The notes under the pieces were generated by a model that searched no databases, was not told the origin of the DNA, and was given only the letters and a program-made list of their open reading frames with translations. From Escherichia coli (lineage in GTDB: Bacteria > Pseudomonadota > Gammaproteobacteria > Enterobacterales > Enterobacteriaceae): a stretch of 64,000 bases of DNA. Positions 94 through 7,251 of this stretch are shown piece by piece; within the stretch, counting starts at the first letter, position 1; every line of letters starts with the position of its first letter. A program made the translations under genes and the position numbers. The stretch lies in NCBI RefSeq assembly GCF_041248615.1, contig NZ_CP158426.1, one strand, 5' to 3'.

Positions 94-116
94 CAAAAAA
101 GCCCGCAGCGCGGGCT
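94..116 (-). terminator. Intrinsic terminator immediately after the 179-aa ORF stop
   Basis: GC stem agcccgc/gcgggct (100-116) with plus-strand A6 run at 94-99 (T-run on minus strand); overlaps stop codon 116-118. Confidence 0.55.
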
Positions 117-655
117 TACCAAAACTTGTACCACGGGGATTTATCCTTCAATGGACAATCCTTCCATCGTGTGGCCAACCATTCATATTCTTTAAAATAT
201 GTGTTTATGTTTTCTTTTTCTCTAATGGCTTGTATAAGAGGTAGCGCAATCTGATAGTTATTTACAACGGAGCTGTAAAATACTTCCTTAATCATGGTCT
301 CATCATAAGTTTTCCGCTTCACGCTCACAGCCATGCGTTCGTAGAAACCTAGACAGTAAATTATTTCTCTCTTCTCTGTCTTTTCTTCATCCGTAAGATC
401 AGCCTGCCCATTGCTTGGATACATATAAGAGCGGAATGATTTGTTCGATTCGTGAATGCGGCGCATAGTAGATAGGCCTTTCTTATAATCTACATCAAAC
501 CTGCTTTCACCAAGGAATACTGAAGTGTGTACTTTTCTCGCTGTATTTACATTATAAATAATAGTAGCGATAGCTATGAACAAGCCAAGCGAAACCGCGA
601 CTGCACTTACGATTTGAGCCACAGCCATGGCAAATTGCATTTCTTCACTTAACAC
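116..655 (-). CDS. Hypothetical membrane-anchored protein (prophage moron); no family assignable
   Basis: 179-aa ORF from GTG at 655 with GGAGA 7 nt upstream (alternative ATG at 640); single N-terminal hydrophobic helix AMAVAQIVSAVAVSLGLFIAIATIIY then charged soluble domain; AT-rich; own terminator. Confidence 0.55.
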   Translation of the reverse strand: MLSEEMQFAMAVAQIVSAVAVSLGLFIAIATIIYNVNTARKVHTSVFLGESRFDVDYKKGLSTMRRIHESNKSFRSYMYPSNGQADLTDEEKTEKREIIYCLGFYERMAVSVKRKTYDETMIKEVFYSSVVNNYQIALPLIQAIREKENINTYFKEYEWLATRWKDCPLKDKSPWYKFW

Positions 656-676
656 AAACTGTCTCCAGACATGAAA

Positions 677-696
677 ACGGGGCCTAATGGCCCCGT
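677..696 (-). promoter_or_regulatory. Perfect palindromic hairpin in the leader of the 179-aa gene (possible attenuator or stabilising stem)
   Basis: acggggcc-taat-ggccccgt, followed on minus strand by TTTC; preceded by a 10-codon mini-ORF with strong SD. Confidence 0.3.
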
Positions 697-865: not shown

Positions 866-1576
866 TCAGAAGAACCCTGCCTTGTCGTTGATGTATTCCG
901 CGTGAGTCTGGATATCACGCAGGCATTTGCTCACACCGACGATGTAGCAAAACATGGTGGTCAGCTCCGCCGCCGCGCCCGATACGTCGTGCCCGTCGTC
1001 CTGTAACTGGTTCAGCAGATTCATCAGCAGTGAGTTCTCCGTCAGGCCGAGAACACCAGACGGAGAATGAATCAGACTGCGGTAGCCGGGCTTCAGTGGG
1101 GCGCTGTAGGTTTTGTTCTCTATCTTCATTGCCTGCATCACTGCTGATGCTGTGGCGTTGGCTACCTGGTCGGCAACCATCTTTATGCGTTCTTCCTGCG
1201 GGAGCGAGTTTTTAATGTAACTTCCGGTGCGGCGGATCTGAGGAAGAACCTCACCTGTAACCCATTTACGAAAGCGGTAGGGGATAGTGCCTGGTGTCAC
1301 CGCATCGCGGCAGCGGAGGATCAGTGTGTAGAGGCCTGACTCGGAGATGATGTTGATCTCTTTTACTCGGCTGTCAAAAATCGCACGATGTTCATGCCCT
1401 ATGTTGAACATAGACCTTTCATCATCATCCAGTTTTTCAAGTGATTGGGTGACGTTTTGGATACGCAGCGCACTACAAACGTCTTGGGCTACAAACCATG
1501 GTTGGCCATCGATAATGATGGAACGGATAGGGTTAACAGATTCAAATTTGAAGATGGCAGTTTGAGCATTAGCCAT
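866..1576 (-). CDS. Phage antirepressor, Bro-N domain family
   Basis: N-terminal FKFESVNPIRSIIIDGQPWFVAQDVCSALRI matches Bro-N/KilA-N-type antirepressor signature; ATG at 1576 with GGAGAT SD (track ORF begins at upstream in-frame GTG 1591). Confidence 0.8.
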   Translation of the reverse strand: MANAQTAIFKFESVNPIRSIIIDGQPWFVAQDVCSALRIQNVTQSLEKLDDDERSMFNIGHEHRAIFDSRVKEINIISESGLYTLILRCRDAVTPGTIPYRFRKWVTGEVLPQIRRTGSYIKNSLPQEERIKMVADQVANATASAVMQAMKIENKTYSAPLKPGYRSLIHSPSGVLGLTENSLLMNLLNQLQDDGHDVSGAAAELTTMFCYIVGVSKCLRDIQTHAEYINDKAGFF

Positions 1577-1731
1577 GGTGGTTATCTCCACTTAGTGATT
1601 TTAATCACCACCGCAACGCCAATTACTGGTGGTGAACTGGACAAGGTTGGCGTACCGGCCTAAGTGGTACCGGCGTCCTTTCGGACCCCTGCCCAGCCCA
1701 CCATAATTCGGATATAGCTGTGCTTAACGCA

Positions 1732-1755
1732 TAAAAAAACCACGTCTGGCGTGGT
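1732..1755 (-). terminator. Putative intrinsic terminator between small paralog gene and ant
   Basis: Stem accacg-tctgg-cgtggt (1739-1755) with plus-strand A7 (T7 on minus strand) at 1733-1739. Confidence 0.45.
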
Positions 1756-1891
1756 ATGCGCCACTTAGTAACTCGGGACGCCAATCCCGGCACTGGATTT
1801 TGCCAGTGCCAGATTACTATGGCACAAGAGGAGTGCGATGTAAATTTACCGCAAAGGTAAATATAAGCACTCCAGTTGGTAATTGCAAACC

Positions 1892-2149
1892 TTATCTGGT
1901 TTGTTTTCGTAATTGTTCGGCACAATAGTCGAGATGTGTTTGCAGATCCCGCATAGACATCTGTGAGCTGGTGACGTAGTTAATCAGTGCAGTCAGTTCG
2001 GCAAGTGGGCCATCGACATTAAATCCATCCTTATCGAGATCCCGGAGTAATTTCATCAAGTGCGATCCCTCCACCAGTGACCTGACGCCTCCCGGCGTGT
2101 GAATCCTTTCGGTAAATCCGTCTTCCAGTGGATAGTGATACTGCTGCAT
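1892..2149 (-). CDS. Small hypothetical protein (86 aa), paralogous to C-terminal domain of the adjacent antirepressor
   Basis: ATG at 2149 with GGAGAAG SD; shared motifs with Ant C-terminus (IH-S/T-P-G-GV, LxExSxLMxLL, DGxxVxG, AELT, RD-I/L-QTH); longest ORF extends to 2272 but lacks RBS. Confidence 0.55.
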   Translation of the reverse strand: MQQYHYPLEDGFTERIHTPGGVRSLVEGSHLMKLLRDLDKDGFNVDGPLAELTALINYVTSSQMSMRDLQTHLDYCAEQLRKQTR

Positions 2150-2344
2150 CTTATCTTCTCCATGCAATAACTGTATATTTATACAGTAGCAAATAATTTG
2201 TTTGCTATCCAGCACGTTTTGCAAATCACCTGAAAGGTAATATCTATTCGTATTTACAGTCTTTCTATCCATATGTGGTTTTTCAGGTAATAGAATAACC
2301 AGATATGCGGCGCAACGGGTGCTGCGACTATCTGGAGATTTAAC

Positions 2345-4927
2345 ATGACGGTCTCAACCGAAGTTGACCACAACGAATACACCGGTAACGGAGTTACGAC
2401 ATCGTTTCCGTATACTTTCCGCATTTTCAAAAAATCCGACCTGGTTGTTCAGGTGTCTGACCTGAACGGGAACGTAACAGAATTGGTTCTGGATACCGGT
2501 TATACAGTAACTGGAGCTGGCACTTATAGTGGCGGTTCTGTGGTTCTTCCGTCTCCGCTTGCTACTGGATGGAGAATTACGATAGATCGTGTGCTTGATG
2601 TAGTACAGGAGACAGATCTTCGCAATCAGGGAAAGTTTTTTCCCGAAGTGCATGAAGATGCCTTTGACTACCTGACGATGCTGATCCAGCAATGTTTTGG
2701 GTGGTTCAGACGTGCATTGATGAAACCATCTTTGCTTGCAAAATATTACGATGCAAAGCAAAACAGAATTTCTAACCTTGCAGATCCATCACTTGAGCAG
2801 GACGCTGTAAATAATCGCTCAATGCGTAATTATGTCGATGCTGCAATCGCCGGAGTTGTTGGTGGTTTTGGTTGGTTTATTCAGTATGGTTCTGGGGCAG
2901 TATACAGAACGTTCCAGGATAAGATGCGTGACGTTTATAATGTTAAAGATTATGGGGCGAAAGGTGACAATATTAACGATGATACGCTAGCATTTATTGC
3001 AGCAGCAAATGCTCTCGGAGAGGGCGGAAAGTTATATATTCCAACAGGAACATACAATTTAACTGGTCCAGTTAATATACCACCAGTGAATATGTGCGGC
3101 GATGGGCAGGGTGAAACAGTTATTGTGTTTGACAATACCACATCACCAAAAGACGGCTTTGTTTTCGCTGCGCCAACTAAATATGATATTGAATTTGGTT
3201 TAAGTCACCTTACAGTTAAAAGAAAAGGCGGGAATGGAGCTAATGCTATATATACCCCAAGAGGTGTCGGGCTTAACCATCTAAGACCAAAACCAACATT
3301 TAGATTTTTATCTTTCTGTTCTGAAACTGCAAATATTGATTCTGATGAATTCGCTCAGAAATACGGCTGGGAATGGTCTTTTAACTGTGGTGATAGTTGG
3401 CAGTTCACAATCGAACGCATTGATGCTGTTGGATGTTATCAGATAGCCAAAAGTTATAATGAACAGTTCCTTGATGGATTCATTCGCACCGCTCCAGAAG
3501 AGGGGATTTTATCAATGCGTGTGAGTGATATCACAACGCATAATGTTGCAAATTTTTTTGAAATTAAGCAGAAGACATATTTTACATTGCTTAATATTGA
3601 TGCCGCCAAGGCATTACGAGGCATTTACGACGCTGATGATCGTATATTTGAAACGAATCGTTATGCTTATGGTGAATGTATATGCACAAATGTTGGTATT
3701 AATGCCCAACTTGAACCAGTACGGCTGGATAACAGATTCCTGCTCATCATGAATGGTATGTTTATTCACCGCGCAGCAAAAGGTTACGATCATGGTCTGG
3801 AATGGGTTGGTCTTAAGCTTAGTCGTGCTCGCGTGTGTTCATTCCAGGGAATTGAGATCGGCACTGCCAGAGGGTATTCAGGGACTAAGAAAGGGATTGT
3901 TCTTGACGCCGGTGATGCAAATAACTTTACCAATGTAACTTTTGGTTTGCTTGATGTGTGCGCACAGATTGGCGATTCCAATTCACAGTATGGTGCCAAC
4001 TTTGCAACATGCTTTAATAATGTGAGCATTAATGCTGACACCGTATTGTTATTCGATTTGCAGCTATGCAGAAATTTCCATTGTGATGGATACGGAGCAT
4101 CTTCTGCCTACACTCTTCAGCAATTCCATAGGAACAGTGATGACACAAGCAATACTTATACATTTAGTAATGTAGGTAAACACAATCTCTACACTGACAA
4201 CTCGCTGTACCTACATAATTCTGCTTCGCTGGAGAACGGGAAGAATATACGTATTGATACACGAAACGGATTATCTGTTAGCACTCAAGCAGATACTGGT
4301 TCCGCAGGAAATAACTTCCTTATAATTCGTAGGACTGGTGTTGATATAGACAGTTTTGAGTTAAGGACTCGCAGTACAGCAGGTGCATATACATATATTA
4401 ATACACCTGAAACTCATTTTTCTGGCCTTATAAAACCAACTGTTGATAATGTTAACTCAAACGGAACATCAGCATTTCGATGGTCACAGGTATACGCTGG
4501 TACTGGCAGTATCAACACGTCGAATGAAGAGCTGAAATTGCGTATTGAGGCTGACGAGAAAACAACAGAATCAGAGCGTCTTGCTGCGCTTGAAATAAAG
4601 GAAAATATCTGGAGGTTTAAATTTAAAGATGCAGTAAAGATCAAGAGTGATGGCGCTCGGATTCATTTCGGTGTTGGTGCACAAACTGTAGGTAATATTC
4701 TCAGAAAATACGGTCTTGACCCTAATAACTATGCGTTCTGGTGTTATGATGAATGGGATGATATTTATGCTCCAGAAGTATTGATTAGGAGTGTTAAAAA
4801 CAATGAAACAGGAGAGTGGTACGACGAGGAATATTACACAGGAAGGCAGATTATTATTAAACCTGCTGGCTATCAGTATGGTATCAGATACGAGGAACTT
4901 CTGATGTTTATTCTTATGTTTATTTAA
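2345..4927 (+). CDS. Phage tailspike: conserved N-terminal particle-binding domain, right-handed beta-helix (pectate-lyase-like) depolymerase domain, C-terminal peptidase-S74-type intramolecular chaperone domain
   Basis: 860 aa; ATG 2345 with GGAGA SD; N-terminus TGNGVTTSFPYTFRIFKKSDLVV typical of podoviral tailspike anchors; VKDYGAKGDNINDDTLAFIAAANA beta-helix entry motif; C-terminal S726-NEELK ... EIKENIWRF chaperone-like region. Confidence 0.85.
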   Translation: MTVSTEVDHNEYTGNGVTTSFPYTFRIFKKSDLVVQVSDLNGNVTELVLDTGYTVTGAGTYSGGSVVLPSPLATGWRITIDRVLDVVQETDLRNQGKFFPEVHEDAFDYLTMLIQQCFGWFRRALMKPSLLAKYYDAKQNRISNLADPSLEQDAVNNRSMRNYVDAAIAGVVGGFGWFIQYGSGAVYRTFQDKMRDVYNVKDYGAKGDNINDDTLAFIAAANALGEGGKLYIPTGTYNLTGPVNIPPVNMCGDGQGETVIVFDNTTSPKDGFVFAAPTKYDIEFGLSHLTVKRKGGNGANAIYTPRGVGLNHLRPKPTFRFLSFCSETANIDSDEFAQKYGWEWSFNCGDSWQFTIERIDAVGCYQIAKSYNEQFLDGFIRTAPEEGILSMRVSDITTHNVANFFEIKQKTYFTLLNIDAAKALRGIYDADDRIFETNRYAYGECICTNVGINAQLEPVRLDNRFLLIMNGMFIHRAAKGYDHGLEWVGLKLSRARVCSFQGIEIGTARGYSGTKKGIVLDAGDANNFTNVTFGLLDVCAQIGDSNSQYGANFATCFNNVSINADTVLLFDLQLCRNFHCDGYGASSAYTLQQFHRNSDDTSNTYTFSNVGKHNLYTDNSLYLHNSASLENGKNIRIDTRNGLSVSTQADTGSAGNNFLIIRRTGVDIDSFELRTRSTAGAYTYINTPETHFSGLIKPTVDNVNSNGTSAFRWSQVYAGTGSINTSNEELKLRIEADEKTTESERLAALEIKENIWRFKFKDAVKIKSDGARIHFGVGAQTVGNILRKYGLDPNNYAFWCYDEWDDIYAPEVLIRSVKNNETGEWYDEEYYTGRQIIIKPAGYQYGIRYEELLMFILMFI

Positions 4928-7141: not shown

Positions 7142-7251
7142 CATGGCATTTTTCATGGTACTGATTTCCGGTGACGGTATATAAAACGGTACTAGAAAAA
7201 TGAAGTTTTGGAAAAATGTTATCACTCAATTTGTTATGATTGTCGTAAATA

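Follow-up and report, generated by a model that had tools for sequence, protein, structure and literature searches.

The 64,000-nucleotide stretch of the Escherichia coli contig NZ_CP158426.1 analysed here, called the window below, carries between positions 866 and 2149 two neighbouring genes that make up the antirepression region of an epsilon15/phiV10-like prophage (a Uetakevirus). This region is composed of two antirepressor units that share the same effector fold and would respond to different inputs. The first gene, ant1 (1892-2149, minus strand), encodes a stand-alone antirepressor of 85 amino acids and is preceded by a LexA box. The second, bro-ant2 (866-1576, minus strand), encodes a 236-amino-acid antirepressor, Bro-N::Ant2, in which a Bro-N head and a helical linker precede a domain resembling the Ant protein of Salmonella phage SPC32H; the spacer between the two genes carries a predicted antisense RNA of the c4 type. 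The arrangement is probably to be read as a pair of proteins, one released from LexA and the other gated by c4, both acting on the same phage repressor, Rep.

In the Bro-N protein, the paralogous part is made up of ~80 residues at the C-terminus, and the kinship proposed by an earlier sequence-only reading of this locus is borne out. BLASTP aligns the small protein with Bro-N residues 147-228 (35/84 identities, 42%, E 2e-19), and the shuffle control named by that reading gave a Smith-Waterman score of 163 for the true pair against a mean of 26.7 for 2000 shuffles (standard deviation 4.3, maximum 61, z = 31). Both open reading frames (ORFs) are co-oriented on the minus strand where that reading had placed them; the coordinates of the smaller one are correct, and its length of 86 amino acids becomes 85, the 258 nucleotides including the stop codon. 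The effector-like C-terminal module was likewise correctly described as occurring both free and fused to Bro-N: PHROG 450, a family of 'unknown function' that already unites free and fused copies, matches the small protein (E 7e-48) and the Bro-N protein (E 6.5e-36). Chain E of PDB entry 5D50 ('Anti-repressor protein'), which is the Rep-Ant complex of SPC32H, is also matched by both in phmmer searches, by residues 2-84 of the small protein (E 1.4e-46, 87% identity with residues 3-85 of the chain) and by residues 155-231 of the Bro-N protein (E 2.2e-13).

Ant1 and Ant2 domains separate into two clades, with 54-86% identity within and 35-43% across; no homogenisation within a phage is observed, and the clades are old. 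The ant1 and Bro-N::Ant2 pair is kept in phages of Escherichia, Enterobacter and Klebsiella. In the Klebsiella phage ST11-OXA245phi3.2 (locus L091, genes at 2495-2755 and 3070-3759), Ant1 has the motif DGHDVSGAAAE, elsewhere typical of the Ant2 clade, at the position where the E. coli Ant1 reads DGFNVDGPLAE; the two paralogs could have exchanged sequence locally by gene conversion, or could have converged towards a shared target surface.

The small gene is an ortholog of the SPC32H ant gene, and the idea that the free copy is an antirepressor itself is thereby upheld. An SPC32H Ant query recovers it with 86.7% identity by tblastn, its synteny is that of SPC32H (ant, SPC32H_020) and epsilon15, the gene being divergent from the tailspike gene, and comparison with SPC32H gives a ratio of nonsynonymous to synonymous substitutions (dN/dS) of 0.06 at a dS of ~1.5, indicating strong purifying selection. 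The work on SPC32H Ant is said to be that of Kim and Ryu, in the Journal of Virology in 2013, and of Kim et al., in PNAS in 2016. According to the secondary literature, this characterised protein is a tetramer, made after LexA cleavage and under SOS/LexA control, that binds two Rep dimers and splits the Rep tetramer. By analogy with SPC32H, Ant1 of the prophage would bind Rep and disassemble its tetramer in the same manner.

The LexA box CTGTATAAATATACAG (2171-2186, minus strand) is near-consensus and lies 21 nucleotides upstream of the ant1 ATG. It is the sole AT-rich match to CTGT-N8-ACAG within the window, and SPC32H, epsilon15 and phiV10 all retain it at the corresponding position, which suggests LexA/SOS control of ant1 in the prophage. 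The Shine-Dalgarno (SD) sequence GGAG (2158-2161) is found 8 nucleotides upstream of the ATG at 2149. A longer form of 126 amino acids reaching position 2272 was considered and is probably non-coding, as it spans the LexA box and disregards this SD. Many gene calls nevertheless lengthen ant1 to 126-127 amino acids over its own LexA box (1892-2272), a likely annotation artefact. The small protein is still 'hypothetical' in RefSeq and in most phage records, and neither it nor the C-terminal domain of the Bro-N protein falls in any Pfam or NCBIfam family.

The Bro-N head of the second protein (amino acids 17-112, 1241-1528, minus strand) is recognised by Pfam PF02498 (E 3.4e-19, 69.7 bits for a threshold of 25.6), the protein is matched by PHROG 130 'anti-repressor Ant' (E 3.3e-55), and the SPC32H-Ant-like domain occupies amino acids ~153-234 (875-1120, minus strand). 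Translation most likely starts at ATG 1576, as in RefSeq, and not at the GTG codon at 1591 adopted earlier. An AlphaFold2 model (mean predicted local distance difference test 77.5) displays a beta/alpha head, a long helical linker of low confidence and a helical C-terminal domain. The model C-terminus superimposes by Foldseek on 5D50 chains E, G and H with a target-normalised template modelling score of 0.75-0.79, a root-mean-square deviation of 1.6-2.5 A and 38-39% identity; the head was likened to the SKI Dachshund-homology and Mbp1/APSES DNA-binding folds. In related loci the heads vary (four Bro-N alleles and one AntA), while the linker and the Ant-like domain are near-constant, the Ant2 effector domain being 89-100% constant in 71 loci with near-identical ant1. 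In a wider profile search only 56 clusters among 1.84 billion representative proteins contain the domain, either stand-alone (80-96 amino acids) or C-terminal to Bro-N, AntA, Phage_pRha or ORF6N heads. This free and variously fused occurrence identifies the Ant domain as a small, mobile effector module.

A study on the related phage vB_EcoP_ZX5 (PMC9782041) reports that overexpression of its ORF4 brought the prophage titre from 1e9 down to 1e6 and lowered rep mRNA by 75%. Past its first ~75 residues, ORF4 is identical to the window protein save for one D/E change, and its head is a Bro-N allele other than that of the window. In phiV10, the annotated phiV10p22 (L001, 4357-4446) is the out-of-frame tail of a frameshifted Bro-N::Ant2 gene, likely another annotation artefact.

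The spacer (1577-1891, 315 nucleotides) had been described as structured, which holds (minimum free energy z-score of -5.8 versus shuffles); what the sequence-only reading had not recognised is that it is more than a passive structured spacer. As read from its motifs, it is an RNA module of the P1/P7 immI type that would control the Bro-N gene. All its elements are on the minus strand. An IsrK-like/c4-a1b1 element comes first (1733-1822; the isrK model RF01394 matches 1809-1733 with 67.2 bits for a gathering threshold of 50, and the overlapping c4-a1b1 model reaches 43.5 bits, just below its threshold of 46.7). Within it lie a1 (UUGGCGU, 1778-1784) and b1 (CUAAGUGG, 1761-1768), as well as an intrinsic terminator (1739-1755) with a run of seven U after it. 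The C4 antisense RNA itself (RF01695, 1625-1708) is matched over the full model, 1-87, with 66 bits (gathering 45, E 1.3e-11). Its b' sequence CCACUUAG (1660-1667) is predicted to be exposed in a hairpin loop and its a' sequence ACGCCAA (1647-1653) to lie in a single-stranded stretch. The leader of the Bro-N gene (1587-1622) then presents a2 (UUGGCGU, 1616-1622) and b2 (CUAAGUGG, 1588-1595). Both a1 and a2 are exact 7-nucleotide complements of a', both b1 and b2 exact 8-nucleotide complements of b', and b2 overlaps the SD of the Bro-N gene (GGAG, 1587-1590), located 10 nucleotides before ATG 1576.

Comparative support for this module comes from its variation in 77 loci, namely 71 contigs from IMG/VR with near-identical ant1 together with the window, phiV10, ZX5, TL-2011b, the Enterobacter phage Tyrion and the Klebsiella phage. 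The c4 genes of these relatives were located with an nhmmer profile, a strict regular expression having missed most alleles. Three a' alleles (ACGCCAA, AGACCAA and GUGCAAA) and four b' alleles (CCACUUAG, CCUUUUAG, CCUUUGUAG and CCGUUUAG) were found in seven combinations; the window carries ACGCCAA with CCACUUAG, and both phiV10 and ZX5 carry ACGCCAA with CCUUUUAG. In all 77 loci a1, a2, b1 and b2 covary with a' and b' without any non-pairing position and with an occasional G.U, one of which is found in the 8-nucleotide b2 core of the Klebsiella phage. This three-way covariation shows that both sets of targets are constrained to pair with c4, and that the cassette exists in several mutually incompatible specificities. 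Two further complementarities can be observed in the leader: GGUGGUGA (1612-1605) complements the 3' strand of the c4 closing stem, and CCACCAU (1581-1575, start codon included) its 5' strand, so that an unprocessed transcript could adopt alternative folds hiding the start codon. The 37-amino-acid 'ash family protein' coding sequence of ZX5 (L002, 3651-3764) overlies the c4 RNA and is likely an annotation artefact as well.

The cassette formed by this RNA module and the Bro-N gene is accessory and self-contained. In SPC32H and epsilon15, ant is directly followed by a terminator and virion genes, no C4 or IsrK match was found with Rfam, and the Salmonella loci cease to be homologous to those of E. 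coli right after the ant stop codon. Similarly, in the E. coli phage PAS61, ant is directly followed by virion genes, and tblastn with Ant1 detected no second Ant-like match. The cassette is carried by phiV10, ZX5, TL-2011b, Tyrion and the Klebsiella phage. Three states are found with the same Rep: PAS61 has ant1 only, in phiV10 the Bro-N gene is frameshifted within the Ant-like domain, and in the window it is intact. These relatives of identical Rep, with ant1 alone or a broken Bro-N gene, designate the small gene as the core component and the Bro-N cassette as the accessory one.

Among 80 IMG/VR loci, 71 contain the cassette, with an intact fusion in 66 and a truncated one in 3, and six clearly lack it. 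A non-functional recombination remnant is ruled out by these 66 intact fusions out of 71 and by conservation across three genera. The c4 gene begins 180-191 nucleotides past the ant1 stop codon in 47 loci. In 24 of the 71, a reverse-oriented gene for a protein of 242 amino acids and a terminator are interposed between ant1 and the cassette, which must therefore possess its own promoter there. Obligatory co-transcription with ant1 is excluded by these 24 loci as a general rule, and may occur in the arrangement of the window. The inserted 242-amino-acid protein (L020, ~1210-2070; 23 other IMG/VR loci; TL-2011b, L005, 3780-4868) has an N-terminal membrane anchor, a Cys-rich C-terminus and its own terminator; a PADLOC search with it gave no match.

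The repressor presumed to be the common target lies at a distance. The window opens inside a prophage of ~39 kb that has the 3' end of guaA as its integration site and itself ends near position 7200; the remainder is host chromosome. No homolog of SPC32H Rep was found by tblastn inside the 64-kb window. The parts of the prophage outside it were taken from the chromosome of E. coli NRZ14408 (NZ_LT599825.1), in which 1472001-1536000 is identical to the window, and there the rep gene was found ~27 kb upstream of the window. It encodes a 194-amino-acid helix-turn-helix (HTH) protein, WP_000836290.1, that is a full-length homolog of SPC32H Rep (E 2e-53, 41-42% identity). The window prophage, phiV10 and PAS61 share one Rep at 100% identity, and the ZX5 paper gives the repressor of ZX5 as identical to phiV10's (PMC9782041), so that Rep is the same in all four genomes compared (three phages and one prophage), the ZX5 identity being as its paper states. 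The closest phages are Uetakeviruses (HEMP4, phiV10, ZX5, TL-2011b and the O157 typing phages). Of 5426 complete E. coli genomes, 534 match at least part of the locus, and 212 match >=80% of it.

On the basis of these elements, the following scenario can be proposed. In the lysogen, host LexA would repress ant1, while the cassette would be transcribed from its own promoter in the order IsrK-like a1/b1 element with a leaky terminator, c4 and Bro-N::Ant2. The a' and b' sequences of c4 would pair with a2 and b2 and mask the Shine-Dalgarno sequence, leaving Ant2 untranslated. DNA damage would lift LexA; Ant1 would then accumulate, bind the N-terminal domain of Rep and break the Rep tetramer, as in SPC32H. 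Ant2 would be made whenever c4 is absent, titrated by the a1/b1 RNA or mismatched in its specificity, that is, upon infection of a naive cell or superinfection by a phage with a different c4 allele. The resident c4 would have no hold on such a superinfecting phage, which would then produce Ant2, whose C-terminal Ant-like domain would inactivate the same Rep. A second immunity layer of the P1/P7 style predicts a polymorphic c4 alongside a Rep and an effector that do not vary. Direct observation covers what the parts are, the geometry of their pairing, their covariation and the accessory nature of the cassette; LexA binding, the binding of Ant2 to Rep, the action of c4 on translation and the occasions of Ant2 expression are inferred.

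Several points weigh against this scenario. LexA binding, c4 processing and Ant2-Rep binding in the prophage are all deduced from comparison. No icd-like leader ORF was found, and only 48 nucleotides separate c4 from the Bro-N ATG, unlike in P1; the missing ORF designates the antirepressor's own ribosome-binding site as the target. The -35 element of the promoter nearest to the cassette is not conserved in phiV10. The ZX5 experiment consisted of overexpression of a glutathione S-transferase-tagged protein in infected cells, the infecting phage carrying ant1 as well, and does not amount to proof that Ant2 alone binds Rep. Finally, with 35-43% identity between two old clades, the targets of Ant1 and Ant2 could differ.

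This last point leads to the alternative that survives best, although it is unlikely: Ant2 might be aimed at the repressors of other phages, as a trans-acting weapon of anti-immunity or cross-induction with a specificity unlike that of Ant1. The age and divergence of the two clades are in keeping with it, as are the dispensability of the cassette for phages of the same Rep and the trans-acting antirepressors documented against the repressors of co-resident prophages in Salmonella. It is opposed by the constancy of the Ant2 domain in the 71 loci where ant1 is near-identical, by the identical Rep of the four genomes compared, and by the ZX5 report that ORF4 overexpression cut the lysogeny of ZX5 itself. 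Appreciably less probable is that the shared domain mainly oligomerises, Ant1 and Ant2 forming mixed tetramers in which one paralog would modulate the other, compete with it or serve as its decoy. This idea of the sequence-only reading, which had proposed such roles for the free copy among others, could appeal to the tetrameric state of SPC32H Ant given in the secondary literature, to the adjacency of the genes and to the conservation of the pair in three genera. It finds no supporting evidence in this analysis: no sign of hetero-oligomers was encountered, the identity is ~40% between clades that are not homogenised within a phage, ant1 works alone in the cassette-less SPC32H, relatives with the identical Rep have the small gene alone (PAS61) or next to a frameshifted Bro-N gene (phiV10), and the different control signals imply that both proteins would often not be present together. 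The least probable, by a little, is that the Bro-N head is the active part, on DNA at operators or on host targets, the Ant-like domain merely multimerising without binding Rep, a proposal to which the resemblance of the predicted head to DNA-binding folds and the 75% fall of rep mRNA in the ZX5 data lend something, and which is opposed by heads that are freely swapped (four Bro-N variants and AntA here, Rha and ORF6N elsewhere) over a constant C-terminal domain and by the sufficiency of the free domain as an antirepressor in SPC32H. Taken together, the swappable heads, the sufficiency of free SPC32H Ant and the ZX5 result designate the C-terminal domain as the effector on the resident Rep, in agreement with the reading in which LexA-boxed Ant1 and c4-gated Ant2 share this target.

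The regulatory signals around the two genes can be described further. A sigma-70-like promoter for the RNA cassette is predicted at 1888-1860 (TTGCAA-17-TATATT, minus strand), and another at 1844-1816 (TTTACA-17-CATAGT, minus strand) whose predicted start near 1809 coincides with the first position of the isrK model. The latter is present in the 24 loci with the reverse-oriented gene. Right after the ant1 stop codon lies a long inverted repeat (1830-1877, minus strand), which holds the operator-like palindrome TTTACC-N5-GGTAAA (1845-1861) and corresponds to a perfect 18-bp stem in phiV10 (L001, ~3470-3515). Its 5-nucleotide loop reads TTTGC in the window and GCAAA in phiV10, an inverted orientation, as if the tip of the hairpin had been flipped; this repeat is also the spot of gene insertion in the 24 related loci. 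A palindrome resembling an operator, ATCACC-N5-GGTAAT (2225-2241), is found between the tailspike gene and ant1, where the epsilon15 record labels the equivalent site 'repressor binding site'. With up to two mismatches (<=2), ATTACC-N5-GGTAAT occurs 15 times in a 49-kb prophage stretch for 1.2 expected, mostly in intergenic positions: copies precede int, ant1 and the c4 cassette, flank rep on either side, occur in the rep-cro region and follow the Bro-N gene. The copies in the locus are located at 784-800, 1845-1861 and 2225-2241. These palindromes may be Rep operators, which would place both antirepressor units under Rep as well. About 170 nucleotides after the bro-ant2 stop codon, a terminator-like hairpin read by eye, CGGGGCC-AUUA-GGCCCCG followed by UUUU (674-695, minus strand), is the probable end of the transcription unit.

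Two neighbouring genes complete this picture. Directly 3' of the Bro-N gene, a gene for a DUF4760 protein of 179 amino acids (116-655, minus strand) stands where SPC32H and phiV10 encode a small membrane protein, and looks like a moron; a PADLOC search gave no match for its product. The 860-amino-acid tailspike (2345-4927), labelled glycosyl hydrolase family 28-related in RefSeq, has an N-terminus common to epsilon15 and phiV10, while the receptor-binding parts vary from one prophage to the next even where the remainder is near-identical (SGNH hydrolase, endosialidase and others).

Taken singly, Ant1, c4/IsrK and the Bro-N 'anti-repressor' have all been described before or figure in databases, and it is their combination that appears undescribed. 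Within the searchable literature, which leaves the primary SPC32H papers outside, no description was found of the SPC32H Ant fold as the module that ends antirepressors with Bro-N, AntA, Rha and ORF6N heads, of two copies of this module in one phage behind a LexA box and a c4 RNA respectively, or of c4 allele polymorphism in Uetakeviruses. The locus also joins two lines of work between which no cross-reference was found, one in which the small protein is the antirepressor (Salmonella SPC32H) and one in which the Bro-N protein is (E. coli ZX5): the terms LexA and SPC32H occur 0 times in the ZX5 paper (PMC9782041), and its accessible part discusses neither the small ant gene nor c4.

A wider interpretation, held tentatively and less likely than not, would unite a general Ant effector domain, a two-key switch, an arms race driven by c4 and an a1/b1 sponge. 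The SPC32H Ant fold may be a general repressor-disassembling effector that occurs alone or behind Bro-N, AntA, Rha or ORF6N heads. Enterobacterial Uetakeviruses would then possess a two-key switch, one copy responding to SOS and the other locked by a hypervariable c4 'barcode'. The constancy of the effector, and of Rep where compared, in the face of at least seven a'/b' combinations means that Rep-homoimmune phages could cross-induce and overgrow one another when their c4 differs; if so, a mismatch of c4 alleles would constitute an anti-immunity arms race at the level of populations. The IsrK-like a1/b1 RNA might serve as a sponge for c4, fed in the arrangement of the window by read-through from the LexA-controlled ant1 promoter, in which case DNA damage would unlock Ant2 too. 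Databases label the Bro-N, AntA, Rha and ORF6N antirepressors by their N-terminal head only, and 5D50 provides a structural handle on how these proteins may engage a repressor. The locus is common, in a family that includes phiV10 and the O157 typing phages, and a c4 RNA that is polymorphic against the same Rep in four genomes offers a natural system for the study of RNA-based heteroimmunity and prophage cross-induction.

Among the known systems, SPC32H is the closest for the first unit, with an orthologous Ant of 87% identity in the same length class and position, a conserved LexA box and a homologous Rep. The differences are that only a terminator follows ant in SPC32H, where the window phage adds the c4/Bro-N::Ant2 cassette right after ant1, and that the Rep proteins are only 41% identical in spite of the 87% identity of Ant.

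For the second unit, a close model is the immI region of P1 and P7, in which a c4 antisense RNA reportedly controls icd-ant and blocks antirepressor synthesis, as Citron and Schuster are said to have described in 1990. The likeness extends to the C4-family a'/b' sequences, a1/b1 upstream, a2/b2 downstream, the position of b2 over a ribosome-binding site and the antirepressor gene that follows, and the allelic a'/b' specificities of the cassette recall the heteroimmunity of P1 and P7. The window departs from this model in having no icd-like ORF, b2 masking the SD of the antirepressor gene itself; in its antirepressor, a fusion of Bro-N with an SPC32H-Ant-like domain; in its repressor, a Rep-type HTH protein and not C1; and in the second antirepressor gene with a LexA box that adjoins the cassette.

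The isrK-orf45-anrP region of Gifsy-1 in Salmonella shares with the window an IsrK-family element, a leaky intrinsic terminator, an ~80-nucleotide RNA and an antirepressor gene whose translation is blocked in the long transcript. There, IsrK in trans raises downstream antirepressor translation 140-fold, and a processed RNA of ~80 nucleotides is found where c4 maps here, in which the authors see a likeness to the P4 seqA/CI RNA (Hershko-Shalev et al. 2016, PMC4825925). In that paper, activation is attributed to IsrK binding the long mRNA and is not framed as c4 titration (PMC4825925). Unlike in Gifsy-1, no antQ gene is found downstream in the window, and no Gifsy record was among the tblastn matches of Ant1 in the phage collection. 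ZX5 differs from the window by its Bro-N head allele and its c4 b' sequence (CCUUUUAG versus CCACUUAG), and its ORF4 represents an experimental counterpart of bro-ant2, belonging to the same gene family at the same locus and facing, through phiV10 and as stated in its paper (PMC9782041), an identical Rep.

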